Positions 13,772 to 28,233 are shown, counted from the first letter of the stretch. The stretch is DNA of 64,000 bases from Candidatus Caldarchaeales archaeon (GCA_039630055.1 JBCNVN010000002.1:32001-96000); one strand, 5' to 3'. Translations and numbers: made by a program. Notes: generated by a model not told the origin, from the letters alone.

Positions 13772-14265
13772 GGAACTCTACCAAACTTCTTATACATTCT
13801 CTCTATTAATTCTTCTTCCTCCAGGGCTTGCCTCTCTTCTTTACTCAAGTCTGCTGGTAACCAGTCTGGATGCTCTCTACCGGTTTCTTCAAAATATTTT
13901 CTGATAGCCCTCTTCAATCCTCCAACCGCCAGTACACTACAATGGTATTTTATCGTTGGAAGACCTCCAAGCTCTTCAGCCACCTTTTCCCAAGATATCT
14001 CCCATGCTTCCTTCAAGGTCTTCCCCTTAACCATCTCGGTCAATATGCTTGCAGCCGCAATGTTTGCCGCACATCCATAGCTCTCAAAAGATGCATTCAA
14101 TATCCTTCCCTCATCTATCTTTAAGTAGATCCTGATAACATCTCCACATGCTGGGCTTCCAGCTTGAGATACTACATCTGCATCGTGCATCACTCCTAAA
14201 TTTTTAGGATTCTTAAATAGTTCTAGAATCTTTGGAGAGTATATTAGTGGTGTTCTCGTACTCAT
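13768..14265 (-). CDS. iscU: Fe-S scaffold IscU/NifU-N with C-terminal extension
   Basis: YS.KILELFKNPKNLG, GSPACGD, GCAANIA, KYHCSVLA. Confidence 0.92.
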   Translation of the reverse strand: MSTRTPLIYSPKILELFKNPKNLGVMHDADVVSQAGSPACGDVIRIYLKIDEGRILNASFESYGCAANIAAASILTEMVKGKTLKEAWEISWEKVAEELGGLPTIKYHCSVLAVGGLKRAIRKYFEETGREHPDWLPADLSKEERQALEEEELIERMYKKFGRVP

Positions 14266-15512
14266 CAGTCAACCGCCTCCTCTAGAACTTCTTTATACTC
14301 TTTACCTAATGGACTGATAGTTCTAAGCCTCTGGATTGCTGGAGGTATCTGGCTTAGAGCATACTCTACATCTTCTCTAGTATTATAGCGTGACAATTTG
14401 AAGAGGATGCTCCCATGAGCTTCTACATGCCTTCTACCTATAGCTAAGATGACGTGGCTCGGCTCGAGAACTCTACTGGTGCATGCGCTACCACTAGAAA
14501 CATAGACCCCCCTAGTGCTTAGTTCAATCGTTATCGATTCTCCCTCTACATGGAGAAAGCTTACGTTAACATTGTCTGGAGCTCTCCTCTCTCCTCTAGG
14601 ACCATTCAAGAGTACATCTGGAACATTCTCTATTATCCCATCCAATAATTTATCTCTTAAGATCTTCATCTTCTCCACGTTCTTGTCGAAGTCTGTGAAT
14701 GCAAGTTCTACAGCCTTCCTAAATCCAGCTATAGATGGAACGTTCTCAACCCCTGGCCACAATCTTTGAGTACTCAAAGCTCCATCTAGCACAGATTTTA
14801 TCTTAACCCCTGGACCGACATATAATATGCCTACACCCTTAGGTCCATGTATCTTGTGGCTACTTAACGTTAACATATCGAGACCAAGCTTCTTCACATC
14901 CATCCTAATCCTACCATAAGCATCTGAAGCATCTGTATGGAATATTATTTTTTCATCTACATCTTTAACTATTTTAACCAACTTCTCCAATTCTTGCACG
15001 GTTCCAATCTCATGATTAACTGCTTGAATGCTAACCATGAATGTCTTATCATCTAGTACTGCTTCAAGCATATCCGGGTCTACGAATCCTTCTTCATCTA
15101 CCGGTAGAGTAACAAGCTTGAAGCCACGTTCCTCTAATGTTCTAGCAGGAAAGAGTACACTTGGATGTTCTATAGCGGATGTTATTATCTTCTTTCTCTC
15201 ACTATCCATATTTGCTAGAGCAGTTCCTTTAATAGCTAGGTTGTTAGACTCTGTACCGCTATGGGTTATTACAAGCTCACCATCTCCAATATTCAATGTT
15301 TTGCCTACGAGATCGAGGGTTGACTCTAATACTTCGTAAGCTTCCCATCCAGGACGATTCGTTATGGATGGGTGACCATAACCTCTCTGATTAAAATATG
15401 GAAGCATTTCTTCAACTACTTCTGGTGGCACCCATCCTGAATTCTCATGGTCGAAATATGCTTCTCTAGGTGGCTTACCATGTTCTTGCAAAAACTCATA
15501 TACCTTCCTCAT
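14265..15512 (-). CDS. iscS: Cysteine desulfurase, IscS/NifS (group I) type
   Basis: SGTESNNLA, SAIEHPSV, SSHKIHGPKG, SSGSACTS. Confidence 0.92.
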   Translation of the reverse strand: MRKVYEFLQEHGKPPREAYFDHENSGWVPPEVVEEMLPYFNQRGYGHPSITNRPGWEAYEVLESTLDLVGKTLNIGDGELVITHSGTESNNLAIKGTALANMDSERKKIITSAIEHPSVLFPARTLEERGFKLVTLPVDEEGFVDPDMLEAVLDDKTFMVSIQAVNHEIGTVQELEKLVKIVKDVDEKIIFHTDASDAYGRIRMDVKKLGLDMLTLSSHKIHGPKGVGILYVGPGVKIKSVLDGALSTQRLWPGVENVPSIAGFRKAVELAFTDFDKNVEKMKILRDKLLDGIIENVPDVLLNGPRGERRAPDNVNVSFLHVEGESITIELSTRGVYVSSGSACTSRVLEPSHVILAIGRRHVEAHGSILFKLSRYNTREDVEYALSQIPPAIQRLRTISPLGKEYKEVLEEAVD

Positions 15513-15624
15513 ATCACTATAACTACGTTATAAAACGTTGAATATAAATTATTCCATTTGCTTGAGAAGACTTATATAAGTGAAGAGGTAACGATGTTTT
15601 TACACAATTTGAGAGGATTGAATC

Positions 15625-16314
15625 TTACTTAAGGTGCACCTGGAATGTAAGCAGTAAAAACAATAGCCCCAGAGAGACCATTACTATTCCCAATGATAGT
15701 TTAAACTTATCCTTATTCATCTGATGCCATCGTCGGATACTTATCATAATCTTCTTAGTAGAGGTTATGTAGAGTATGAAAGCTAGAGGTGCTATGAACA
15801 GGATGTTATATGTGGACAAGAGTAGTGTAGGGTAGGGAGCATCTGTTATCATCGAGATAAATGTTGGGTAGACTCCTCCAGTACACACATATGGAAAATT
15901 GTGTAATCCAAAGAGAATACCTGCTGTTAGGGAAGACCCGTAACCAATCCTCTTCATTTGCATTATCGCTCTCTCCCTACGTATTGAAGACCTGTTAAGC
16001 GGCAAGACTTCTAAACCGAGATATGATAGTATATTAGCTATTCCAACAAACATCATGATCGAAATGCTTACCCATTTAGAGAGATGTGGAAAGGTTGAAA
16101 TGCTTAGCGAAATAGTTAACAACCCTAATCCTACCAACATATACGATGAGAACACTCCTATGATATATGATATTCCTAAGATTAAGACGGTCAACCTGTT
16201 AGCGCCTGCAGAATATGTAGGTGATATGAAGAGAGCTAGGAGGCTTAAGTTACATATATTTAAACCATCTAAGATCCCTAAGAACAAAATGTATGGATTA
16301 TCCATGTCTCCCAC
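15625..16314 (-). CDS. CcdA/DsbD-like transmembrane redox protein
   Basis: Multi-TM; DGLNIC (cf. D..NPC) and VCTGGVY cysteine motifs, YNILFIAPL. Confidence 0.7.
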   Translation of the reverse strand: MGDMDNPYILFLGILDGLNICNLSLLALFISPTYSAGANRLTVLILGISYIIGVFSSYMLVGLGLLTISLSISTFPHLSKWVSISIMMFVGIANILSYLGLEVLPLNRSSIRRERAIMQMKRIGYGSSLTAGILFGLHNFPYVCTGGVYPTFISMITDAPYPTLLLSTYNILFIAPLAFILYITSTKKIMISIRRWHQMNKDKFKLSLGIVMVSLGLLFLLLTFQVHLK

Positions 16315-16487
16315 CTAGAATCTGTAGACGACCGCTTTTGTATTATTAAGTAGCTCGATTTCCACTTTATCACCTGGAGATAGTCATGGCTCTTTAACCA
16401 TGTTATGAGTATATCTAAAATGAACTATTTCTCCAGACTCCATTATAATTACTACTCTACATGTAAACTCAACTATCTCGGTTTAGC

Positions 16488-17219
16488 CTACTCTTCTAAT
16501 TCTAGTTCTTGGATAAAGTCACCGTGCCAAGAATGGTACCAGACCGCTCCTGTAAACTCGTTAACGCTTAGCATACTATGTATCTGTCCATTAAGCTTAT
16601 AATCCATAGTATAATAGCCGTAGAATTTTGTTGGCTCTTCTACTTCTATTCTTCCAGGATAAATACGTGAAAGATAATCATATGCTATCTGCTTAGCTTC
16701 ATCCTCTGTTATTATAGTGCTGAAAGGCGCTGGGGTTCGAGGGCCTATCACAGGCCCCATTCTATAATGCATTCCATACTTTATATTCCACATCATGTTA
16801 GGCCCAGGCTCAGGCGTTATCTGTCCAGTATAGGGGTTTACAAGAACCTCGAAAGCTCCCATACCTGTATCTTTTTCCATTATTATAGCGTAGAAATTGT
16901 TCGTAAACTCCATGATCTCTTTAATAGAGAAGCCTCGACCCAGGGTGTAGACATACGATTCTAAAATAGATTTAACAGAGTTTATGTCAAGTCTTTGATT
17001 GGGAATTGTTGGATACCACCATCCATACATTGGACACATTGGAGACCCTCTTACATACCACCACCCCCAATTACCTGGAGCCGTGGGTGCATTGCTTGAT
17101 GTAGTGTTCGCAGAAACTACTAAGAAGCCTGCTACAGTGGCGGCTATTGCCAAGAGGATTAATCCAATTATCAAGATGGGAGAATTTTTCAATCGGCTCA
17201 TATTATCACCTAGCAGCAA
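16488..17219 (-). CDS. Membrane-anchored conserved hypothetical protein with PepSY-like repeats
   Basis: N-terminal TM; [13 protein letters not shown]; two 'IT.DEAKQIA...VN..TG.' PepSY-like units. Confidence 0.6.
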
Positions 17220-17422
17220 CGTGTGTCATGAGAATGCGATGTAATTCTAGAAGGATGAGCAGCGTATCCTTCAGGATTCTTCTCGAACTCTGTTTTACAG
17301 TATTCTGAACAGAAGTAGTAGGTTTCTCCAAGATATGTACTTTTGAAACTATTTTCCATCTTCACCATCATACCACATACAGGATCTACTAATTCTTTTC
17401 TCTTAAACATCGGATCACTCAA
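17210..17422 (-). CDS. YHS/TRASH domain metal-binding protein with His/Cys tail
   Basis: DPVCGM...[14 protein letters not shown]; C-terminus HSHDTRCC. Confidence 0.85.
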
Positions 17423-17578
17423 ATCTTATATATGCCTAGAGAATATAAGCAGTGCGTATCTTTTATAACTTTTTGTAATATTCTGTAGTTATTAAGTGGA
17501 AAGATTTAGTCTATAGGATATAGGTGAAGTTCAAGTGAAATCCCGGTTAATCACTTCGTATTATTTTTCCGGTTATAT

Positions 17579-18124
17579 CTAGAGGTCTATATTCTTTAGT
17601 TCAATGGTTACAGCGTGATCACTTAGAGAGAAATAGGCATCTACTCCTATCCTTTCAAATATCGGCTGGATGTAGTGGGCTATGAAGAGAGAGCCTTTTG
17701 AGCCTAGAGAATGTGTAAGCGTGATAATGATCTTGTCCTCTTTTATAACTTCATTATAACTGAAGAAGTTTGCATATTTTGAAAGAGTTTTGAGATAACT
17801 GAACACAGCTTCAATTGATAGTGATCCTTCTTTTGCAATTATGAATGTTTCCGAAATATCTTTACCTGCAGTATAACTTGCTTTTATCAATAGCTCTTCT
17901 GGAAAAGCTTCTAGCAGATTCTTAAAAGCTAGTGTCATCAATTTAATTACACCAAGCTTTTCTGCATATCTATCGAAGTTTACGTATGAGAGGAAGATCT
18001 GATTTACAAGCGTATTCACGCTGACATTATGTCTTTGAGCATCTTCTTGAAGTATCTTTAAAACTACCTCGCTTATCCTAAACGATCTAGTTACAGTCTT
18101 TTCAAACTCCATCAATACTACCAA
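17579..18124 (-). CDS. Ribbon-helix-helix-like putative transcriptional regulator with C-terminal sensor-like domain
   Basis: TRSFRISEVVLKILQEDAQRHNVSVNTLVNQI fits the RHH pattern. Confidence 0.6.
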   Translation of the reverse strand: MVVLMEFEKTVTRSFRISEVVLKILQEDAQRHNVSVNTLVNQIFLSYVNFDRYAEKLGVIKLMTLAFKNLLEAFPEELLIKASYTAGKDISETFIIAKEGSLSIEAVFSYLKTLSKYANFFSYNEVIKEDKIIITLTHSLGSKGSLFIAHYIQPIFERIGVDAYFSLSDHAVTIELKNIDL

Positions 18125-18130
18125 ACCTAA

Positions 18131-18146
18131 TATTATCCGGATAATA
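18131..18146. promoter_or_regulatory. Perfect 16-bp palindrome TATTATCCGGATAATA, candidate operator
   Basis: Exact inverted repeat between the divergent RHH regulator and YHS gene. Confidence 0.55.
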
Positions 18147-18210
18147 AATTTGTCTTCTCAAATCTTAGAAAACTTTAAGAACCCAGAGTATAAGCTAATC
18201 TTGAAGCTGT

Positions 18211-18354
18211 ATGGCTAAGGATCCGGTTTGCGGAATGATGGTAGATGAGAAGAAGGCGAAGTATATTTTCGAATACAAATCTAGAAGATACTACTTCTGT
18301 TCTGAAGCTTGTAGAAACATATTTAAGAATAATCCAGAGAAATACATAAAATAG
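18211..18354 (+). CDS. Small YHS domain protein (47 aa, below the ORF-track cutoff)
   Basis: Manual translation [47 protein letters not shown]. Confidence 0.88.
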   Translation: MAKDPVCGMMVDEKKAKYIFEYKSRRYYFCSEACRNIFKNNPEKYIK

Positions 18355-18387
18355 TCATCTTTCGTAATCTAATAATATGCTGATAAT

Positions 18388-18681
18388 TTAATGTTGATCA
18401 TCTTTTTGTACGGTCTTCTTTATAACTATCTTCCATAATGCTTCTTCTAGGCGTTCTACGCTCAAAACCTTGTGACCTCTCTCGACAGCTACGTCTTGAA
18501 TAGTTTTAGTAGATGGCTGGTTATCGAATATTATCTCCAGTATCTCATCTTCTTTGATCTTCTCCAATGTTTTAATAGTGTATAAGGTGGGATATGGACA
18601 TGGTAGCCCTAAAACCTTTAATACATATCTGCCAGGTTCAACCTCGCTTACCTCTATATTCATGACTGAGGTCACCTCCAT
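18388..18681 (-). CDS. tusA: Sulfurtransferase TusA family protein (likely start ATG 18663)
   Basis: LKVLGLPCPYP (CPxP motif); GGAGGTGA ribosome-binding site before 18663; overlaps the reductase 3' end. Confidence 0.88.
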   Translation of the reverse strand: MEVTSVMNIEVSEVEPGRYVLKVLGLPCPYPTLYTIKTLEKIKEDEILEIIFDNQPSTKTIQDVAVERGHKVLSVERLEEALWKIVIKKTVQKDDQH

Positions 18682-20153
18682 TCTCGATTGTCTCCTCTAA
18701 AAGCTTATCCGCAAATTGATGAAAATCTCTTAAACCACTATTAATAAACTTCTTTAAAATATCTTCAATTACTTGATTTACATGATCTTCAGGAATATTT
18801 TTGATAAATAATTTGGAGAGCTTCGAGCCGGTGCCCATTATGTAGAGGTTGAAACACGGTATCGAGATTCCATCTTTTTTGATTGTTGTTGATTGTAAAC
18901 CTATGTCTGAGACTAGATGATGTGCGCAAGAATTTGGGCATCCACTAATAGAGATGCTTATATCAAGCTTTTCAAGATCTCTACCAAGTTTATCAACTAG
19001 ATAGTCTAATAGTATGCCTGCTCTCCTCTTACTGCTTTCAAGACTCTTACCGCAGAAATTACTTGGACAAGCTCTTGTCCTAATTTTTATTAATGGTTGT
19101 CTTGGATCCAGTCCAATCATCTTCAGTTCCTCTACAACTCTTGTCAATTCCTTCTCAGGAATGTGTATTAATACTAGCTTCTGAGCTGGAGAAACCCTAA
19201 TCTCATCACTATATCTTTCAGCTATCTCAATTATCTTCTTGAATTGATGAACGTTTAAGAGACCTGTGAAAATTGGCACAATCAGAGAGTATAATCCATT
19301 CTCCTTCTCATGCGATACAACATCATGGTCTCCCCATTCTAAATTTAGCTTACTGCAATCTAGATACTGAAAGTTTTTACCCATGTTTTCTTCAATTAAC
19401 TCTCTCAATCTACTCAACCCCTTCTCCTTAATTAACCATTTAAACCTCGCAGTGCTCTTCCTATCCCTAAGCCCATGATCTCTATAGATCTCGACCACCG
19501 TTCTTATGAATTCTAATGATTCAGATACTGGTACAAAGATGTTTAATGGTTGAGCAAGAAATGGTGGAAAGCCTAAGCTTCCTCCAACCAGAGGTGTAAA
19601 ACCTATTCCATACTCCGATTTTACAGCTACTAATGCTAAATCGTTTATCTCAGGTTTTATACAGTTTATCTTACATGAAGATATTCCTATCTTAAATTTT
19701 CTAGGCAGGTCTAAAAACTCCTTATTTCCTGTAAACATCTCTACGGCTCTCTTAACTATTGAGCTAGTTTCAATTATCTCATCGGTTTGAATTCCTGTCA
19801 AGGGGCATGTAACAATATTTCTTATTTCTAACATCTCCATATCCAGCTTTTGGATAATGCTGCCCACACATATCTGTGAATAGCTCAGCCTCTTCAAGCT
19901 TAGAAAAGATGTCTAGTGAGTCTACATCTCTAATCCAATGTAGTTGTATATCTTGCCTAGTTGTTACCTCAAGATATCCTCTTCCATATCTTTCTGATAG
20001 TTCGGCAATAGTCCTAGCTTGATCTATTCTTAGAATTCCCGCAACTATTTTTATCCTTAGAAAGTGTATTGACCCTTCTCCTTGTTCTGAGCCTAGAGCA
20101 TATCTTCCAACGTACTTATTGAGAACTTCTACTTCTTCTAGTTCTAGTCTATT
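18638..20153 (-). pseudogene. Frameshifted ferredoxin sulfite/nitrite reductase (siroheme-[4Fe-4S])
   Basis: C-terminal part: LPRKFKIGISSC, RACPSNFCG, SGCPNSC. N-terminal part in another frame: FLRIKIVAG, YGRGYLEVTTRQDIQLHW, GYGDVRN. Joined by removing a 7-bp duplication at 19816-19829; no canonical start codon. Confidence 0.85.
19816..19829 (+). repeat. Perfect 7-bp tandem duplication TATTTCT x2 (AGAAATA x2 on the coding strand) causing a frameshift
   Basis: Removing one copy restores GDVRNIVTCPLTG. Confidence 0.9.
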
Positions 20154-20271
20154 TTCACCTTCAGTTCAATTTATAACGCCGTCATATAAATATTTCAAAT
20201 CTACCCGACCATCAAGAAAAATCTAACATTAATAAGGGGTAAAAAATAATTATCATTATAAGAGTAGGATT

Positions 20272-21417
20272 ATGTCTACTGGCCTTCCCGTCGAAAAGTT
20301 GTTAGAAGAGGTTAATGGGTATTGGTTGAGGCCTGTTAAAAGCAAGACGATCGAATTGGATAACGGAAGCTCTATCATCGTAAAGTTGGAGTATCCTGAA
20401 GATTTCTTGAAGGACCCTTTAAGAACCATCAAGAGAAAACCTGCAACGATGCTTTTTGAAGACCTATTCTTTAAAGGCTTCATAAAGCAGGGTAAGATAA
20501 TTATTACCGCCTCCTCTGGAAACTTCTTGAGAGAGTTAGCATTAATTGCATTAAGACGTGGATTCAAGATCATTGGAGTAACCCCTCCAAGAATCCCATA
20601 TGAAAATCTAAGGATACTGAAAACTCTAGGAGTAAACATAATCCACATAACAGAAGAGTATGATCTATGTCCTAGAGAGACAACCGTATTCTATACAAGG
20701 TCTCTAGCTGAGAACAATAGATACATGCTTGTAAACGTTGACCAGTACATTAGCTGGCAGAATGTCATGTCTCATGTTTATACGACTTGGAGGGAGATAA
20801 AAGAGATCGGAGAGATAGATTATGCATGCATACCGCTTGGAAGCACCGGTACATTCATGGGGATATCACTTGCCTCAAGTCTAGAGAAGGAGAAGATCAA
20901 TCTTATCGGAGTCCAGCCTACAAGATACCATAATATTCCCGGTGTCCACTATATCGTTGGAGGATGTGAGTGGAGTCCAGAGATATTCTCACCTCTAATA
21001 AGCAATAGGATTGTTACAGTGGATGATGTAGATGCTTACGCTGGTTTAATAATGCTTTGGGAGAAGGGAATATACGCTGGACCATCGACCGGCATGGTGT
21101 TTATCCAAGCATTGAAATTAGCAGGAGAAATTAAGGATGGCCGAATCCTAATAATCTCACCGGACAGCATCTTCTCTTACAGAGATTATGTATTGAACAT
21201 CTTGAAAGAGATACAAGCTCAGATCTTCTCAAGGTATCCACATCTAAGAGAACCCTATCTGAGATATGTTGAGTGGCTTAGGAGACTTCCAGAGATAGAG
21301 GAGAGAGTCGAACATATAAGGAAGGTATATGGAACAGGTGAAGAGGGCAGGTTATATAGATTCGATGATGTTGGAGATTTGTTAGAGAATATTAAGACGC
21401 TGTATACTATTACATGA
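20272..21417 (+). CDS. Divergent PLP-dependent cysteine synthase family (fold type II) enzyme
   Basis: IVKLE...RTIKRK (PLP Lys), ASSGNF, LGSTGT, HNIPGV, GIYAGPSTG, ISPDS. Confidence 0.8.
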   Translation: MSTGLPVEKLLEEVNGYWLRPVKSKTIELDNGSSIIVKLEYPEDFLKDPLRTIKRKPATMLFEDLFFKGFIKQGKIIITASSGNFLRELALIALRRGFKIIGVTPPRIPYENLRILKTLGVNIIHITEEYDLCPRETTVFYTRSLAENNRYMLVNVDQYISWQNVMSHVYTTWREIKEIGEIDYACIPLGSTGTFMGISLASSLEKEKINLIGVQPTRYHNIPGVHYIVGGCEWSPEIFSPLISNRIVTVDDVDAYAGLIMLWEKGIYAGPSTGMVFIQALKLAGEIKDGRILIISPDSIFSYRDYVLNILKEIQAQIFSRYPHLREPYLRYVEWLRRLPEIEERVEHIRKVYGTGEEGRLYRFDDVGDLLENIKTLYTIT

Positions 21418-21508
21418 TATTTAAAAATATTGTTGGTATGGTTGAAATGGTTAAGCGGAAAGCTTATTAGAGAGAACATTCCATGAAAATTCAAGTAAGG
21501 GGGGTAAA

Positions 21509-22750
21509 TCGGAACTCAGCAAAGAGATATGTTTAAAATGTAGAGATTGTGGTGTTGAGTATCCTCCTACAATTCAGTACGTCTGTCCAAGATGTTTCGG
21601 TGCATTAGATGTAGTCTATAAAGACTTGGATAAAATAGATCTTAATCCTGAAAAGATCTCTAAGAGAGGAAGAGATCTCTGGAGATATATTGAACTATTA
21701 CCAATTAAGGATCCTTTAAACATAGTATCACTTGGCGCTGGATTCACATCTCTAATCAAGTCAAGTAAACTCTCCAAGTCGATAAACTTGAAAAAACTAT
21801 ACTTGAAAGAAGATATTACAAATCCAACCCATTCTTTCAAAGATAGAGCTGCGAGCGTTGCAGTATCGAAAGCCTTAGAGTTTAAGCTAAATGCAGTAGG
21901 ATGCGCATCTACGGGAAATCTAGCAGCAGCTACAGCTGCTCATGCTGCAAGAGCTGGACTACCATGCTATATCTTTGCTCCAGTAGGAGTTGAGAGGGAG
22001 AAGCTATCCCATGCATCATCTTATGGAGCGAGAATAGTATTGGTGGAGGGAACCTATGATGAGGCCAACTGGATTGCTTCTAGATTTGCCGAAGAAGGAA
22101 ATGTAGGTATAGTAAATGTTAACATTAGACCATACTATGTTGAGGGATCTAAAACTTTAGCATTCGAGATATGTGAACAGCTTGGATGGAGAGCTCCAGA
22201 ACATATAATAATTCCTATGGCAAGTGGTGCTCTCCTGAACGCTGTATACAAAGGTATAAGTGAGCTGAAGAACATAGGATTGATAGATGGAGATGTAAAG
22301 ATTTCTGGTGTCCAGCCTGAAGGCTGCTCTCCAATAATTACAGCATACAAAGAGAATAGAGACTACATTAAACCGGTACGAGATATAAATACTATAGCGG
22401 TTAGTTTAGCTATTGGAAACCCTGGAGATGGGGTATATGCTTTAAGGACTATACGTAGAACTGGAGGTACAGCGGTTTCAGTTACCGACCGAGAGATACT
22501 TGAGGCGATTAGAGACCTTGCTCGGCTGGAGGGATTGTTCATCGAGCCTGGTGGAGCTGTAACGATAGCAGGACTTAAAAAGATGGTGGATGAAGGTATC
22601 GTAGATAGGGATGAAGAGGTGGTCTGTCTACTGACTGGTAGCGGTCTAAAGACTCCTCACATAATTCAGGAACAAGTTCTCCAGCCTATAGTTATAAAAC
22701 CATCTCATACCGAGCTTGTAAAGATTCTAGAGGTTGAGAAGGTTGCCTAG
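21509..22750 (+). CDS. Threonine synthase-like PLP enzyme with N-terminal zinc ribbon (start uncertain; first canonical start TTG 21626)
   Basis: NPTHSFKDR, CASTGNLA, RPYYVEGSKT, PMASG, LLTGSGLK; the upstream frame is open and encodes LKCRDCG...CPRCFGALDV. Confidence 0.85.
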   Translation, partial: SELSKEICLKCRDCGVEYPPTIQYVCPRCFGALDVVYKDLDKIDLNPEKISKRGRDLWRYIELLPIKDPLNIVSLGAGFTSLIKSSKLSKSINLKKLYLKEDITNPTHSFKDRAASVAVSKALEFKLNAVGCASTGNLAAATAAHAARAGLPCYIFAPVGVEREKLSHASSYGARIVLVEGTYDEANWIASRFAEEGNVGIVNVNIRPYYVEGSKTLAFEICEQLGWRAPEHIIIPMASGALLNAVYKGISELKNIGLIDGDVKISGVQPEGCSPIITAYKENRDYIKPVRDINTIAVSLAIGNPGDGVYALRTIRRTGGTAVSVTDREILEAIRDLARLEGLFIEPGGAVTIAGLKKMVDEGIVDRDEEVVCLLTGSGLKTPHIIQEQVLQPIVIKPSHTELVKILEVEKVA

Positions 22751-23015
22751 AGTGAGATTGGTTCTTCCATCGATAATAGCTGGTGGAGGAGATAAAGTTC
22801 GCGAGATTGAAGCATCAACATTAAAAGATATAGTAGAATATCTCTGCAATCTGAAACCTGAAGTAAGAGATAGAATAATCTCACCTGATGGAGAACTCAA
22901 TAGATCTTTCAACTTCTATGTAAATGGTGTAAATGCATACTTTATTAAAGGGGTAGATACTGAACTTAAGGATGGTGATGAGGTCTCAGTTATACCTGCT
23001 CTAGGAGGTGGATAG
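22734..23015 (+). CDS. MoaD/ThiS/SAMP ubiquitin-like sulfur carrier
   Basis: YVNG...ELKDGDEVSVIPALGGG with C-terminal Gly-Gly. Confidence 0.93.
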   Translation: MRRLPRVRLVLPSIIAGGGDKVREIEASTLKDIVEYLCNLKPEVRDRIISPDGELNRSFNFYVNGVNAYFIKGVDTELKDGDEVSVIPALGGG

Positions 23016-24096
23016 AGGAATGGTTGAAGAATTTACAGATGAAGAGTTCGAGATGTACTCTAGACAGATCGTCTTGAACGATATCGGATATAAAGGTCAG
23101 GAGAGGTTGAAGAAAGGTAAAGTAGCAGTGGTAGGGGTGGGCGGGCTCGGATGTCCAGCCGCAACACTCTTAGCCGCCATGGGAGTAGGATACATAAGAT
23201 TGATAGATAGAGATATTGTAGAGAGATCGAATCTCCACAGACAACATCTGTATACATATAAAGACATTGGATACCCAAAAGTCGAGATAGCTGCTAAGAG
23301 ACTTAAAGAACTAAATCCATATATTGAGATCGATCCACTACCTGTATCGATAGATGAATCTACCGCAATAGATGTATTAAGAGATGTGGATGTAGTGGTG
23401 GATGGGTTGGATAGTTTTAAAGCTAGGAGAGCAGTCAATAATGCTTGTTATAAGTTATCGATACCATATGTTTATGCGTCAGCTATAGAGACCTATGGAG
23501 CTATTATGACCATAGTCCCTGAGAAAGGACCTTGTCTAGAATGTTTGTTCCCAAATGTATCTGATTCAGAGCTGCCCACGTGTGCTATAGTAGGAGTCCA
23601 TCCTTCAGTGCTCCAGATACTATCTGGGATAGAAGTATACGAGGCGGTCAACATCTTAACCGGTAAGACTCCACATCTACTTGGAAAGCTACTCCTATAC
23701 GATCTAGTCGATCTATCTTCAAGCCTTATAGATGTAGCCAAGTCGAGACATTGTCCAGTATGTGGAGGGTTAGGATTAGAGAAAGAAGAAGTAGAGTATC
23801 CTGTTGTTGAAGAAGTCTGTGCGAGAGAAGGATTACCAACATATATCATCAATCCTGGAGGGATTAAATCATTAGATCTAGAAGATGTAGTTAATAGATT
23901 GAATGATCCAAGCTATAAGTTGGTTACAAGCAGTAGACTTGGGATCACTTTACAGATAGATCGTAAGGTTAAGCTTAGTCTTCTAAAAACAGGTATAGCA
24001 GTGATAGAAGGGGTGAGATCTAGAGAGGAGGCTCTCAAGATATATAAGAGTATAATGGAAAGAATTATAAATAAAGAAGCCCTGCCTATTCTATGA
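23008..24096 (+). CDS. moeB: ThiF/MoeB (E1-like) adenylyltransferase with C-terminal extension
   Basis: YSRQI, GVGGLG, DRDIVERSNLHRQ, PCLECLF, PTCAIVG, CPVCG. Confidence 0.9.
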   Translation: MDRGMVEEFTDEEFEMYSRQIVLNDIGYKGQERLKKGKVAVVGVGGLGCPAATLLAAMGVGYIRLIDRDIVERSNLHRQHLYTYKDIGYPKVEIAAKRLKELNPYIEIDPLPVSIDESTAIDVLRDVDVVVDGLDSFKARRAVNNACYKLSIPYVYASAIETYGAIMTIVPEKGPCLECLFPNVSDSELPTCAIVGVHPSVLQILSGIEVYEAVNILTGKTPHLLGKLLLYDLVDLSSSLIDVAKSRHCPVCGGLGLEKEEVEYPVVEEVCAREGLPTYIINPGGIKSLDLEDVVNRLNDPSYKLVTSSRLGITLQIDRKVKLSLLKTGIAVIEGVRSREEALKIYKSIMERIINKEALPIL

Positions 24097-25904
24097 CGGT
24101 TATGTACTGTTATACGGGTAGAGCCTTAAGAATAAATCTAACCACTAACAGTTACAGGATTGAAGAAGCTAGAAAAGACTTTATCGATAGATATATAGGT
24201 GGTAAAGGGCTAGGAATTAGATACCTGTTAGAAGAAGTCCCGCCAAGGATAGATCCCCTATCACCTGAAAACAAGATAATAATCGCTACGGGTCCTCTTA
24301 CCGGTACCATCGCACCTCTCTCTGGAAGATTTCCTATAGTAACCAAGTCTCCCTTGAGTAACACGGTATGCGATAGTTATAGTGGGTCATTTTTCGCTGT
24401 AAGAATGAAGTATGCTGGATACGATCTACTCATCGTTGAGGGTAGAGCGAATAATCCTGTATACGTTGAGGTTACAGAGAATGGGGCAGAGATAAGAGAT
24501 GCATCCCATCTATGGGGTCTCGGAACTCTAGAGACATCTAAAACTCTTAAAGAAGAGTTGAGAGATGAACATGCAAGTGTCTTGACTATCGGTCCTGCTG
24601 GAGAGAATCTTGTAAGATTTGCATGTGTTGTTGATAGTGGGTTATGGGTTCATGGTAGAGGTGGGGTTGGAGCAGTATTCGGCTCAAAGAAATTGAAAGC
24701 TTTAGCTATCAAGAACTATAAGGGAGAGGTTAAACTATATGACCCCGATAGTTTTAAGAATACTGTAGTCGAATTAACTAGGAGTAGGGTCAAGACAGCT
24801 GAGAATCTATGGGCTCAGACAGACGGTACACCTATAATAATCGACCTATCACATAATGCAGGCGTCCTACCATCATACGGTTTTAGATCAGGTTCATTCG
24901 AATACCATGACAAGATCAATACTGAGAGAGTAAAAGAGGCCACAGCTAAGAAGTATGCTTGCCCATACTGTCCACTAGCATGTAAGAGAATACTCAAATT
25001 CGATAATAGATTGGTAAAATCTCCTGAGTATGAGACTCTTAGCATGATGGGGTCAAATCTAGGAATAAGAAATCTTAAAGATATCTCTGATGCTGCTGAG
25101 GTTGCAACAGATTTAGGAATGGATACGATATCTCTAGGAAGCGTCCTCGGATTTATAGTAACAATCTATGAGAAGAAACTGTTATCTGAAAAAGATCTGA
25201 ATGGCCTGAAGCCTTCATGGGACAATCTAGACTATATTATTGGGATGAGCAAGATGATAGCATATAGAAAAGCTATCGGTGACATAATGGCTGAAGGATT
25301 AAAGAGGGCTGTTCAAAAGATTGGGGGAGAAGCTGAGAAGGAGAGGCTAGATGTAAAAGGACTAGAGCTTCCAGCATATGATCCTAGAGGAACCTATGGA
25401 ATGGCCCTCGCTTACGCAACCGCAGATAGGGGTGGATGCCATCTAAGAGCATGGGCGGTTGCAAACGATGCATTCGGAGAGATGGATCCATACAGCTTCA
25501 CTGGGAAAGCGAAGCTCGTTAAAGATCTTCAAGACTTGAATAGTATAAAGTGGTCTCTAATAATATGTGATTTCTGGTTATCTAGTTATGAGGATATGAG
25601 TAGACTTTTGAAGCCTGCTCTCGGCAGAGATTATAGCATTGAAGAGCTCAGGCTTATTGGTGAGAGAATCTGGAATCTTACTAGATTATTCAATCAGAGA
25701 GAAGGTTTTAGGAGGGTAGACGATAATCTACCTTCTAAGATGTTTGATCAACCTCTAAAAGGTGGGAAGACAGATGGAAGAGTAGTTTTGAAGAATGAGT
25801 TTGAAGATTCTCTTACCGAGTATTATAGACTACGAGGATGGGATGAAGAGACTGGCACCGTCAAAGAAGAAACATTGAAGAGAGTAGGTTTAGATGTATC
25901 TTAG
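24093..25904 (+). CDS. aor: Aldehyde:ferredoxin oxidoreductase family (W/Mo-pterin)
   Basis: YIGGKGLG, GRGGVGAVFGSKKLKA, CPYCPLAC, PEYETL, DLGMDTIS, RGGCHL, YYRLRGWD. Confidence 0.93.
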   Translation: MTVMYCYTGRALRINLTTNSYRIEEARKDFIDRYIGGKGLGIRYLLEEVPPRIDPLSPENKIIIATGPLTGTIAPLSGRFPIVTKSPLSNTVCDSYSGSFFAVRMKYAGYDLLIVEGRANNPVYVEVTENGAEIRDASHLWGLGTLETSKTLKEELRDEHASVLTIGPAGENLVRFACVVDSGLWVHGRGGVGAVFGSKKLKALAIKNYKGEVKLYDPDSFKNTVVELTRSRVKTAENLWAQTDGTPIIIDLSHNAGVLPSYGFRSGSFEYHDKINTERVKEATAKKYACPYCPLACKRILKFDNRLVKSPEYETLSMMGSNLGIRNLKDISDAAEVATDLGMDTISLGSVLGFIVTIYEKKLLSEKDLNGLKPSWDNLDYIIGMSKMIAYRKAIGDIMAEGLKRAVQKIGGEAEKERLDVKGLELPAYDPRGTYGMALAYATADRGGCHLRAWAVANDAFGEMDPYSFTGKAKLVKDLQDLNSIKWSLIICDFWLSSYEDMSRLLKPALGRDYSIEELRLIGERIWNLTRLFNQREGFRRVDDNLPSKMFDQPLKGGKTDGRVVLKNEFEDSLTEYYRLRGWDEETGTVKEETLKRVGLDVS

Positions 25905-27013
25905 ATTTCTGACTCTGAAATATTCATCCTCGCAACATTGAGGCTTCCACCTACGCTTGGAGATACATATATTTTATCTGGAAATCTTATAGCCAGGCTA
26001 TTGAATACATCATGAATCATAGATAAGTTTGCATATTGTCTCTTCTCAACGAGCAGTAGTGATGTAATCTTCTCCAAGTAATCTAATCTTATCTGGCTAA
26101 GCCCACATCTCTCAAGTCTTGAATAAGCCTCGATCAAAGTCTTCGAGATCTCATATCTTCCAGCATTCTTCAGATAGCCAAACATTATCTTCGATATCTC
26201 TTCAAAGAGATATTCCTCAAATTTATGTTGACTAATCTTAGAGATCTTCATGATCTTATCTACATATCGTAGTATTTGTTCATGTATAGAATATTTTCCT
26301 CTACCATCTCTTCTTAGTAGCCCTATATCGACAAGCCATTCAAGTCTAGGGGGTGCGATATGCCTATACTTTGAATACAAGCTAGTTCTTATCCACTCGG
26401 TCTTGTCAACTATTGACGTTCTCTTCTCTCTAAACTTCTCAGCCTCAACTATCTCTGACTCTATATTCTTTCTCCTAGATTCTGGAAGAGTATTAAGGAT
26501 CTTCTTAAGAGAGGCGGGATATATCTCTTCCATTATATAGTTCATAGCTTCTTGCCTTGTAAATCTCTCTTTCTCCACTGCCCAGGCTATTATCAACTGT
26601 ATAAATGGATAATCTGATGTTGAGATGATCCAGAGAAAGTATAGCTTTTCAGCATCTGATAGGTTTATCAAATCTCTTAAAGAGGGTGGAGTTCTACCTT
26701 CAACAAATTCTCTGATATTCTCACTAGAATTGAGAACTAGATAGATCTTTCCAAACAATCCTAGTTTCTGTATCTTCCGATCAATAATACCCATCTCACC
26801 GGCGAGTGTTACATAGTTCCTAGCATTCACCGGCCGTGTGATTAACCCTATCATACTCTGTGTGGAAGATCTCAGATCTCCGACATCCCTAACTACTTCA
26901 TAAAGTATGCTGGAGATGAAGTCGAGGCTTCTAGGTTCTTCATCCTCCATTATACATGGTATTATTCTAAGGTAGCCAAGTCTACACGTATCACCATGAG
27001 TTTCAAGTATCAT
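25901..27013 (-). CDS. Hypothetical protein with probable winged-helix elements, coupled to the methyltransferase
   Basis: 370-aa ORF; ATGA overlap with the MTase; PRLEWLVDIGLLRRDGRGKYSI resembles a wHTH recognition helix and wing. Confidence 0.6.
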   Translation of the reverse strand: MILETHGDTCRLGYLRIIPCIMEDEEPRSLDFISSILYEVVRDVGDLRSSTQSMIGLITRPVNARNYVTLAGEMGIIDRKIQKLGLFGKIYLVLNSSENIREFVEGRTPPSLRDLINLSDAEKLYFLWIISTSDYPFIQLIIAWAVEKERFTRQEAMNYIMEEIYPASLKKILNTLPESRRKNIESEIVEAEKFREKRTSIVDKTEWIRTSLYSKYRHIAPPRLEWLVDIGLLRRDGRGKYSIHEQILRYVDKIMKISKISQHKFEEYLFEEISKIMFGYLKNAGRYEISKTLIEAYSRLERCGLSQIRLDYLEKITSLLLVEKRQYANLSMIHDVFNSLAIRFPDKIYVSPSVGGSLNVARMNISESEI

Positions 27014-28233
27014 GAGGCTATCACTTCTTCAATATCTCTTATCAGCGATGTTGGTTTTGCGATACTCCAATCAATCCGAACATTATAAGGGGTGAAGTCA
27101 CCCTTGCTGAGAACTAGTATTACCTCTCTGCTTACACCTTGCTCCTCATCCAAATACCAGAGATATTTATTGGATTTGGGAACACCATCAGAGATCACGA
27201 ACTTGATATCGAAACCTATCTCCTCTGCTATAGGACCTACCTCCTCAGCCATGTTCACGATTCTTTCTCCTAGCTTGACTGTGCCTAGAACTATTATCGC
27301 AGCTTTATCCCATCTTAATACTCTAAATATCTCTCGTAAACACTCTCTAATGAAGATCTTGAACTTTTTTAGAGAGTTGGTTTGGAAGAGCTTCTCTCTT
27401 ACTTCTTCATACCTATACCCTAGAAACCATAATCTTAACCAGTTATCCCAAGCATATGTCTGCATATTGAAGTATGGTGGAGAGGTAATAACTAGGTCTA
27501 CACTCTCATCATCAATCGGTATATTTCTAGCATCAACCATGAATGCTTTTCCATTAACTGCTGGTATACCATCTCTGAGAACTCTCTCAGCCTTTATTTT
27601 CAAACATTTCAATACATCTCTATTTGGTTTCCTTATACCATTCTTCTTTATGTATTGTTTAACATAGTTTGGAGACATGGAGAATGAGTGTGAACTCTTT
27701 ATGCTTAGATGGATCTTGGAGGGGCCATGTAGTATGCCGAGTGTCAATGCCTTCAAGAAATAGGATAGATCTTTATCTTCCTCTTCTAGTCTATCTAATA
27801 GGTCTCTAACCGCCAGTATCTGCCTCAATGTATAGTCGCTATAGAATACTCTTACATTCTCGTCTACTTTATCTACATCATATTCTATGGGATTTATTCT
27901 AGACTTAGCCCATTCAATCCACTCTAATACTCTGCGAATTCTAACTGGTCTAACTTTAGCTCTCGTCAAAACATGTGCTTCAGGTGCTAAATCATTTCCC
28001 AATCCCACTCTATCGTTTAGACATGCTTCTAATGGGGCCGTACCTTTACCACTGAAAGGATCTAGAACTATGTCTCCAGGTCTAGAATACTTGATTATAA
28101 AGTAGTAGGCGAGTGCAGGGGGGAATGAACCTGTTCTAGAGCAGATTCTATGCAGGCTAATTCCCCATCCATTCTCTGCATACTTCCAGGAATCACATAT
28201 TCTGTAGCTTTGAATATATCTGATCCGCTTCAA
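27010..28233 (-). CDS. Amino (N4-C/N6-A) DNA methyltransferase, motif I before motif IV
   Basis: VLDPFSGKGT (SAM binding) and VITSPPY (catalytic; SPPY is typical of m4C enzymes). Confidence 0.85.
   Translation of the reverse strand: MKRIRYIQSYRICDSWKYAENGWGISLHRICSRTGSFPPALAYYFIIKYSRPGDIVLDPFSGKGTAPLEACLNDRVGLGNDLAPEAHVLTRAKVRPVRIRRVLEWIEWAKSRINPIEYDVDKVDENVRVFYSDYTLRQILAVRDLLDRLEEEDKDLSYFLKALTLGILHGPSKIHLSIKSSHSFSMSPNYVKQYIKKNGIRKPNRDVLKCLKIKAERVLRDGIPAVNGKAFMVDARNIPIDDESVDLVITSPPYFNMQTYAWDNWLRLWFLGYRYEEVREKLFQTNSLKKFKIFIRECLREIFRVLRWDKAAIIVLGTVKLGERIVNMAEEVGPIAEEIGFDIKFVISDGVPKSNKYLWYLDEEQGVSREVILVLSKGDFTPYNVRIDWSIAKPTSLIRDIEEVIAS

Follow-up and report, generated by a model that had tools for sequence, protein, structure and literature searches.

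The stretch of DNA discussed here, 64,000 nucleotides (nt) from a Candidatus Caldarchaeales archaeon (GCA_039630055.1 JBCNVN010000002.1:32001-96000; G000:C12:32001-96000 in our numbering of genomes and contigs), will be called the window. At 18388-25904 it contains a divergent seven-gene locus, as seen in the list of open reading frames (ORFs) and in Pfam and NCBIfam scans. The rightward operon of this locus probably makes homocysteine by a thiocarboxylate route, in an archaeal counterpart of MetM/MetO, judged by comparison of sequences and gene neighbourhoods. As a whole, the locus is best read as a pathway of the MetM/MetO type joined to a sulfur supply by sulfite reductase (Sir) and the sulfurtransferase TusA, plus a new CysM-like enzyme. 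The basis is the family membership of the genes, the placement of one protein next to MetM, the adjacency of a sulfur carrier, the recurrence of the carrier-activating enzyme (E1), Sir and TusA, and the lack of any other known homocysteine synthase. A homocysteine route so far shown only in Streptomyces is apparently common in this archaeal phylum. The genome itself comprises 1.54 Mb in 80 contigs and is 92% complete. It was compared with a genus set (the window and five congeners, G001, G003, G005, G006 and G007), with 40 relatives of the same order and with a phylum sample of 401 genomes from 161 genera.

The pivotal gene is the one that resembles ThrC, the threonine synthase. The genome has three genes of this family according to TIGR00260: a housekeeping one on C3 (314 bits), that of the locus (298 bits) and one on C78 (157 bits). 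The first, at C3:17769-19001, lies inside the canonical ThrC clade, and the gene of the locus is not the sole candidate for threonine synthesis. Homologues above 50% identity to the locus gene occur in 22 of the 40 relatives, as a group sharply set apart; the housekeeping type, about 40-45% identical, is found almost everywhere. As references we used five Streptomyces/Kitasatospora genomes, reached by a 16S primer scan, in which MetM was identified via its MetO neighbour and not via an accession. The best match in each shares 45-48% identity with the archaeal protein over the full length, zinc ribbon included, and all five precede a 92-aa ThiS-like gene that ends AVAGGC. The ordinary Streptomyces ThrC is 38% identical and has no zinc ribbon. 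In a maximum-likelihood tree of 57 rows (quick search), 21 archaeal proteins of the locus type and the five MetM form one clade (SH-aLRT 100), and Streptomyces ThrC groups with the archaeal housekeeping type (SH-aLRT 99). A tree of 67 rows, built without four long-branch rows (L182, L184, L198, L200), yields a MetM clade of 35 rows and a ThrC clade of 23, each with an SH-aLRT of 99. The protein thus belongs to the MetM clade and not to canonical ThrC (SH-aLRT 99-100).

Signature sites point in the same direction. They were defined on Streptomyces alone, as the 130 sites at which MetM and ThrC are each fixed, in different states. At 47 of them the window protein shows the MetM state, at 21 that of ThrC. 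The MetM state prevails in 21/21 proteins of the locus type, the ThrC state in 13/13 of the housekeeping type. Twenty-five positions distinguish the MetM clade, in which they are fixed throughout, from ThrC. Among them is a block that reads S-x-N-x-x-R-x-x-x-Q in ThrC, which we take to bind the substrate phosphate there, and N-x-R-x-x-Y-x-x-x-S in the MetM clade. The third paralogue of the genome (G000:C78:31087-32553, minus strand) has about 100 aa at its C-terminus that resemble a winged helix-turn-helix, and relatives have this type as well, as ORFs of 475-534 aa.

A carrier gene lies directly downstream of the MetM-type gene in 29 of the 34 loci that are readable on that side (the window, L005-L019, L208-L210, L212, L213, L215, L216, L218 and L220-L224). 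The carriers align with Streptomyces MetO, at 30-33% identity to the carrier of the window. Their PA..GG end is invariant, as are P88, G92 and G93. Several extend past the GG, to GGGC in G005 and by two to eleven residues in others, which implies trimming by a protease. The module also keeps company with sulfur-handling genes. In family f10, MetM, carrier, E1, Sir and TusA form one co-directional string; in G106, TusA adjoins MetM-carrier-E1; in G026 the trio is followed by NifU and NifS; and in G134, DsrE-TusA-NifS-NifU adjoin MetM-carrier. Within the genus, the order TusA-Sir <> CysM-like, MetM-like, carrier, E1 is intact in five genomes. The link of MetM-carrier-E1 to Sir and TusA, drawn by a first-pass annotation of the window, thus recurs in other families of the phylum, with the order shuffled. 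The same annotation had suggested MetM/MetO for the ThrC-like protein and its carrier, an idea borne out by phylogeny, signature sites, synteny and complementarity to MetY.

In five closed genomes with a MetM-type gene (three of family f5, one of f56, one of f58), the gene is followed by a ThiS-ThiF fusion in four and by separate ThiS and ThiF in one. In-frame fusions of carrier and E1 directly after the MetM-type gene were seen in L221-L224 (G200, G046, G056, G390), L010 (G009) and L213 (G106); in the latter two loci no stop occurs within 10 codons after the GG, and the E1 match lies in the frame of the carrier. To expose its GG, such a fused carrier would have to be cleaved. A published survey reports, in the available part of its text, a MoaD-MoeB fusion in 61 of 98 Thaumarchaeota and lists it under molybdopterin synthesis (PMC11237513). 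Our loci suggest that the fusion is part of the MetM module.

The metabolic surroundings fit. The genome encodes two MetE-type methionine synthases and a homoserine kinase whose gene is split across two contig ends. In this 92% complete genome, there is no MetY-family Cys_Met_Meta_PP enzyme (best PF01053 match, 32 bits) and no match to HcyBio (PF01837), which leaves the MetM-type gene as the only recognisable homocysteine route. Of the 40 relatives, 18 have the MetM-type gene only, 13 PF01053 only, four both and five neither, so that 31 hold exactly one of the two. HcyBio occurs in 0/41 genomes, the 40 relatives and G000. The switch between the MetM-type and the PF01053 state took place inside at least four genera (g1, g3, g4, g7). 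In the phylum sample the MetM-type gene was detected (E <= 1e-105) in 121 of 401 genomes and 45 of 161 genera, and in family f5 in 53 of 56 genomes. PF01053 and PF01837 are absent from all five of the closed genomes mentioned above, each of which has a second ThrC-family gene in the canonical clade.

The chemistry of the pathway, with its substrates and its source of sulfur, is inferred throughout. The E1 (23008-24096) would adenylate the C-terminal glycine of the 93-aa carrier. The acyl-adenylate would then be converted to a thiocarboxylate, with sulfur in the form of sulfide from the ferredoxin-type Sir and/or of TusA persulfide, the latter possibly loaded by the nearby NifS. The MetM-type enzyme is predicted to carry out a gamma-replacement on O-phosphohomoserine, with the thiocarboxylate of the carrier as the nucleophile, and so to yield homocysteine. 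If the product stays bound to the carrier, it might be released by a JAMM protease encoded elsewhere. MetE would finally methylate homocysteine to methionine. The genes concerned and the other features are compiled in Table 1. All seven genes listed in the first-pass annotation were found, and its claim that the last four rightward genes overlap translationally proved correct: the overlaps amount to 17 nt (ThrC-like/carrier), 8 nt (carrier/E1) and 4 nt (E1/AOR, the aldehyde:ferredoxin oxidoreductase).

Table 1. Features of the sulfur locus and its surroundings, numbered from the first letter of the window (PLP, pyridoxal phosphate).
Feature	Position	Strand	Evidence or remark
NifS/IscS-type cysteine desulfurase	14265..15512	-	TIGR03402, 391 bits, below cut-off
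Palindrome TATAAC-N3-GTTATA, perfect copy	15518..15532	.	directly upstream of nifS
TusA/SirA-type sulfurtransferase	18388..18681	-	PF01206, 66 bits; CPxP cysteine motif
Sulfite/nitrite reductase, C-terminal frame	18638..19912	-	NIR_SIR, ferredoxin-like half-domain, NIR_SIR; 18638-19897 in the ORF list
Sulfite reductase, N-terminal frame	19779..20165	-	first ferredoxin-like half-domain, in a frame different from the rest
7-nt tandem duplication, AGAAATA twice	19816..19829	-	frameshifts the reductase
Palindrome TATAAC-N3-GTTATA, 1 mismatch	20172..20186	.	divergent sir / cysM-like promoter region
CysM-like PLP enzyme, 381 aa, small archaeal-only family	20272..21417	+	fold, PLP lysine K54
MetM-type (ThrC-like) PLP enzyme, 407 aa, N-terminal zinc ribbon	21527..22750	+	PF00291, TIGR00260
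ThiS/MoaD-family sulfur carrier (MetO-like), 93 aa, ends PALGGG	22734..23015	+	PF02597
ThiF/MoeB-type E1, 362 aa, no rhodanese domain, ~100-aa C-terminal extension	23008..24096	+	PF00899 sole Pfam match
Aldehyde:ferredoxin oxidoreductase (AOR)	24093..25904	+	PF01314, PF02730; overlaps E1 stop by 4 nt

Several points weigh against this pathway. The ThrC-like protein scores 298 bits with TIGR00260, whose cut-off is 167, and so passes the NCBIfam equivalog test for thrC. According to the accessible part of PMC12172450, a cyanobacterial MetM homologue beside a metO-like gene is a threonine synthase/deaminase and not fully a MetM, which calls for caution in transferring the MetM function by homology. 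Five MetM-type loci, all of family f4, have no carrier within 20 kb. Among the relatives, G001, G003, G006 and G026 possess both the MetM-type and the PF01053 gene, and G011, G013, G015, G019 and G035 (78-89% complete) possess neither. The metM-like gene has a non-canonical start, and Sir is frameshifted in the window. The region 14000-27000 has no Rfam match at threshold, and no SAM (S-adenosylmethionine) riboswitch was found there. A JAMM/Mec+ protease, which the first-pass annotation had proposed to look for, has three candidates in the genome, all of them JAMM genes that lie outside the locus. Finally, related genomes are not independent samples.

The same genes could be explained differently. 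The ThrC-like protein might be a second threonine synthase, for which its place above the TIGR00260 cut-off speaks, and carrier and E1 might form an AOR-linked MoaD-MoeB pair that provides the dithiolene of the tungsten cofactor. MoaD beside AOR, often with MoeB, is a known sporadic cluster in the available part of PMC1779556; as there, MoaD-like, MoeB-like and AOR genes stand here in a row on one strand, and E1 and AOR overlap by their 4 nt. Yet the AOR is placed after the E1, which separates it from the carrier, and in most relatives carrier and E1 are kept with the MetM-type gene and without an AOR; G006, G007, G026, family f10, G106, G117 and the five closed genomes are examples. Within the genus an AOR follows the E1 in three of five readable loci (the window, G005 and G001); the contig of G003 ends there, and in G006 and G007 the next conserved gene comes right after the E1. 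Outside the genus, no locus has an AOR adjacent to the module, G010 having a 38%-identical AOR 6 kb away. Moreover, a MoaD-like (Ubl, i.e., ubiquitin-like) gene adjoins MoaE at C1, and a further E1-MoaD pair is located at C12:118-120 kb, so that a tungstopterin role of the locus carrier is unnecessary. With the ThrC-like protein in the MetM clade and outside the ThrC clade, we regard this explanation as very improbable. The AOR is probably a passenger in the operon. Its place in the module, as seen in the first-pass annotation, is not supported by the relatives, and the further suggestion that the carrier could also feed tungstopterin is weakened.

Still less credit can be given to the view that carrier and E1 serve protein modification of the SAMP/Urm1 type or tRNA thiolation and that their adjacency to a ThrC paralogue has no biosynthetic meaning. 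Of course, in NCBIfam the carrier matches SAMP1 best (48 bits), followed by moaD_arch (45.5 bits), both below their cut-offs, and the E1 reaches 204 bits with the UbaA model, again below the cut-off, as it is with the MoeB and ThiF models. Against it stand the adjacency of the carrier to the MetM-type gene, kept in at least eight families and in Streptomyces, and the distribution of the MetM-type gene, which is complementary to that of MetY-family genes. For such roles the genome also holds two further E1s and another four Ubl genes. At G000:C21:3109-5873, a 398-aa E1 that has a long extension at its C-terminus is arranged divergently with the gene of a JAMM-domain protein; the two make up a ubiquitin-like system of their own, with no relation to the locus.

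The MetM-type pathway leaves one gene of the rightward operon to be explained, that of the CysM-like enzyme. With 114.5 bits it stays far below the NCBIfam cysKM cut-off of 344; the PLP lysine K54 is retained, as are the SSGN and GSTGT loops. Its family comprises 71 proteins (E <= 1e-10) of 371-393 aa, from archaeal metagenome-assembled genomes wherever the source is named. Invariant in the family are C133 and C232; a C-terminal helical extension (residues 300-380) is conserved. An AlphaFold2 model was obtained (pLDDT, the predicted local distance difference test score, 90.2; pTM, the predicted template modelling score, 0.90). In a Foldseek search its core of about 300 columns matches CysM, CBS, SbnA and the CysM of M. 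tuberculosis; the matches cover the catalytic core only, with none to the C-terminal extension. The gene was found in 14 of the 401 phylum genomes.

The CysM-like enzyme probably makes cysteine or S-sulfocysteine from the sulfur stream of the locus. Sulfide, thiosulfate, the carrier thiocarboxylate and the TusA persulfide are all candidate donors. Its steadiest neighbours are Sir and TusA. An enzyme without any use for the carrier has about even chances: it would be an O-phosphoserine or O-acetylserine sulfhydrylase working on the sulfide from Sir, or it would use thiosulfate, like the CysM of E. coli. In the thiosulfate variant, the product would be S-sulfocysteine, and its sulfite would then be reduced by Sir. 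The closest solved relatives, CysM, CBS and SbnA, are compatible with this, as is a weak match of TusA to TsuB/YeeD, the partner in thiosulfate uptake. In G106 and G138, moreover, the order is PF03601 permease, Sir, TusA, small membrane protein, CysM-like, with no carrier, E1 or MetM within about 10 kb. On the other side, all 14 genomes with the CysM-like gene also have the MetM-type gene, the two lie within 5 kb of each other in five genera (g1, g3, g21, g45 and that of the contig of G080), and an ordinary CysK is already encoded at C6 of the same genome. Reverse transsulfuration, the role of CBS, is unlikely, because the genome has no PF01053 lyase.

In three loci (L205:5957-10683, L206:28-4825 and L209:4883-8013) the CysM-like gene adjoins a multi-pass membrane protein of about 180 aa and a PF03601 permease of the YeiH type. 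The membrane proteins are 37-47% identical to each other in three families and belong to no Pfam family; together with the permease they suggest uptake of a sulfur compound. G117 has none of these genes, neither permease nor Sir, TusA or small membrane protein, near the CysM-like gene. The protein p181 of the window (17579-18124) was considered as a homologue of these small neighbours and is not, the latter being the mutually similar membrane proteins just mentioned.

One may go further and assume that MetM, carrier and E1 are the main, hitherto overlooked homocysteine route across Nitrososphaeria-type archaea, including the lineages whose carrier-E1 fusions have passed for MoaD-MoeB, and that the CysM-like enzyme with its two invariant cysteines is a new cysteine synthase working on protein-bound sulfur (carrier thiocarboxylate or TusA persulfide), so that both sulfur amino acids would be made without free sulfide. 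This combination we consider rather unlikely.

How does the locus compare with established systems? The MetM/MetO pathway has been described in Streptomyces albulus (Hasebe et al. 2024, Appl Environ Microbiol 90:e01247-24, as reported in the available parts of PMC13759103 and PMC12172450), and the order MetM then MetO is documented for Streptomyces in Table 2 and the appendix of PMC13759103. The archaeal locus resembles it in having a ThrC-homologous PLP enzyme of the same clade (45-48% identity) with a ThiS/MoaD-type carrier directly after it, a separate canonical ThrC in the same genome and, in some carriers, residues past the GG as in MetO (GGC in G005). It differs in its archaeal host, in its rhodanese-less E1, where Streptomyces uses MoeZ, an E1-rhodanese fusion, and in the TusA and sulfite reductase that lie adjacent instead. 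It also lacks a Mec/JAMM gene, has no SAM riboswitch that the Rfam scan detected, has a non-canonical start codon in its MetM-type gene and has the CysM-like gene alongside. The supplements of PMC13759103, as far as available, list no archaeal metM or metO. A description of MetM/MetO in archaea was not found in the literature searched, which mostly misses subscription journals.

The sulfite reductase connection has its own precedent. The biochemistry of the Wolinella succinogenes system, HcyS/HcyF/HcyD/MetY plus sulfite reductase, was reportedly worked out by Krishnamoorthy and Begley in 2011. Operons with carrier, JAB, rhodanese-less E1, SirA, sulfite reductase and O-acetylhomoserine sulfhydrylase had been grouped as class 4e by Iyer, Burroughs and Aravind in 2006, in a list that, in the available part of PMC1779556, includes Wolinella and the crenarchaeon Pyrobaculum aerophilum. 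The present locus shares with them the ThiS/MoaD carrier, the rhodanese-less E1, SirA/TusA and a sulfite reductase (frameshifted in the window, intact in five congeners) that would feed a PLP sulfhydrylase. Unlike theirs, its sulfhydrylase is of the ThrC fold and presumably acts on O-phosphohomoserine; the PF01053 O-acetylhomoserine sulfhydrylase is missing from the genome. The cluster also lacks a JAB peptidase and sulfate-activation genes. The first-pass annotation knew of no description of the combination in archaea. Its general design was catalogued in 2006 with one crenarchaeon among the hosts (in the available part of PMC1779556); the present locus departs from it in its ThrC-fold sulfhydrylase, its lack of a JAB and its breadth among archaea. 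With the CysO/CysM/Mec+ system of M. tuberculosis (PDB 3dwg, 3dki) the locus has in common a CysM-fold PLP enzyme near a carrier and an E1 (Foldseek, 3dwg chain A, E 1.2e-20). Here, however, identity to the mycobacterial CysM is 25-27%, and the archaeal enzyme has an extra C-terminal helical domain, two invariant cysteines and no Mec+ neighbour.

These distinctions have practical consequences. Naming MetM-clade genes "threonine synthase" and the carrier-E1 genes MoaD/MoeB creates a false homocysteine gap in genome-based metabolic models. If the pathway is real, it accounts for the methionine prototrophy of a large and environmentally important group of archaea, and the Streptomyces pathway of 2024 is ancient, widespread and joined to the Sir/TusA supply of Wolinella-type operons. 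As for the CysM-like family, its enzyme is uncharacterised and could be put to a direct test.

The sulfite reductase deserves a closer look. The first-pass annotation had seen Sir and TusA as an overlapping pair. Both are present and overlap by 44 nt, but the reductase is not a single ORF. Its 7-nt duplication occurs in the window only; according to a DNA alignment it is absent in 5/5 congeners, where Sir is a single open frame of 494-501 codons. DNA of the window is present in hot-spring metagenome runs, and the duplication is covered without gaps by Logan contigs from three runs, made on two samples of a single study from which the window may itself derive. The lesion thus exists in that population and did not arise from an error in one assembly; one of the contigs carries two substitutions nearby. 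Judged by its reading frames, Sir of this genome is inactivated by the duplication, and sulfur would then have to come from another source here. Rescue by programmed frameshifting was considered and dismissed: a +1 shift would be needed at AAT-A-AGA, no slippery site is recognisable, and the congeners lack the insertion. A second NIR_SIR gene pair is found at C23 of the same genome. TusA follows Sir in all relatives and in distant families.

The starts of two genes are unusual. For the metM-like gene, the frame 5' of the TTG at 21626 encodes the CxxC...CxxC zinc ribbon common to all homologues. No ATG, GTG or TTG occurs between the upstream in-frame stop and the ribbon in any of the six genus genomes (21455-21540 in the window; L005-L009). 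Where annotated homologues begin, an ATA or ATT is conserved in all six, in the window the ATA at 21527. From the upstream ribbon and the conserved ATA/ATT the gene is taken as 21527-22750, longer than the longest canonical ORF. The codon may be a deliberately weak initiation codon. A canonical start is also missing there in the more distant loci L012, L013, L020 and L215. Similarly, Sir has no in-frame ATG, GTG or TTG near its N-terminus in the window (20100-20170, minus strand), in G005 and in G006 (L009); in G003 (L006) the first in-frame start is a TTG 15 codons in, and in G007 and G001 a GTG stands in frame where the start is expected. Copies of the MetM-type gene interrupted by in-frame stops were seen in G023:C23:982-1938 (two stops) and, as a second copy, in G117 (C14:11038-12225, one stop). 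Like Sir in the window, the MetM-type gene appears to be decaying in some lineages.

A palindrome may tie the locus to nifS. It stands upstream of sir in the window and in 5/5 congeners, and directly upstream of nifS in the window and in 3/3 loci that include nifS; these loci of 12-20 kb hold no other copies. Allowing for one mismatch at most, the window contains four matches, where 0.37 are expected. The palindrome looks like a candidate common operator of a sulfur regulon. The nifS gene is near the locus in G005, G007, G001, G026 and G134, and NifS is a possible alternative sulfur source for TusA and carrier. The conserved neighbour p181 has no family match; its N-terminus resembles a ribbon-helix-helix by eye, which makes it a candidate regulator. 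Between nifS and p181 (15625-17422, minus strand) lie genes for a 229-aa membrane protein, a 243-aa protein without family match and a 70-aa YHS-domain protein, the last two being conserved near the locus in congeners. On the far side, at 25901-28233 (minus strand), two overlapping genes are conserved downstream in all congeners; they encode a 370-aa protein without family match and a 407-aa protein that looks by eye like a DNA methyltransferase. This pair marks the end of the sulfur cluster.

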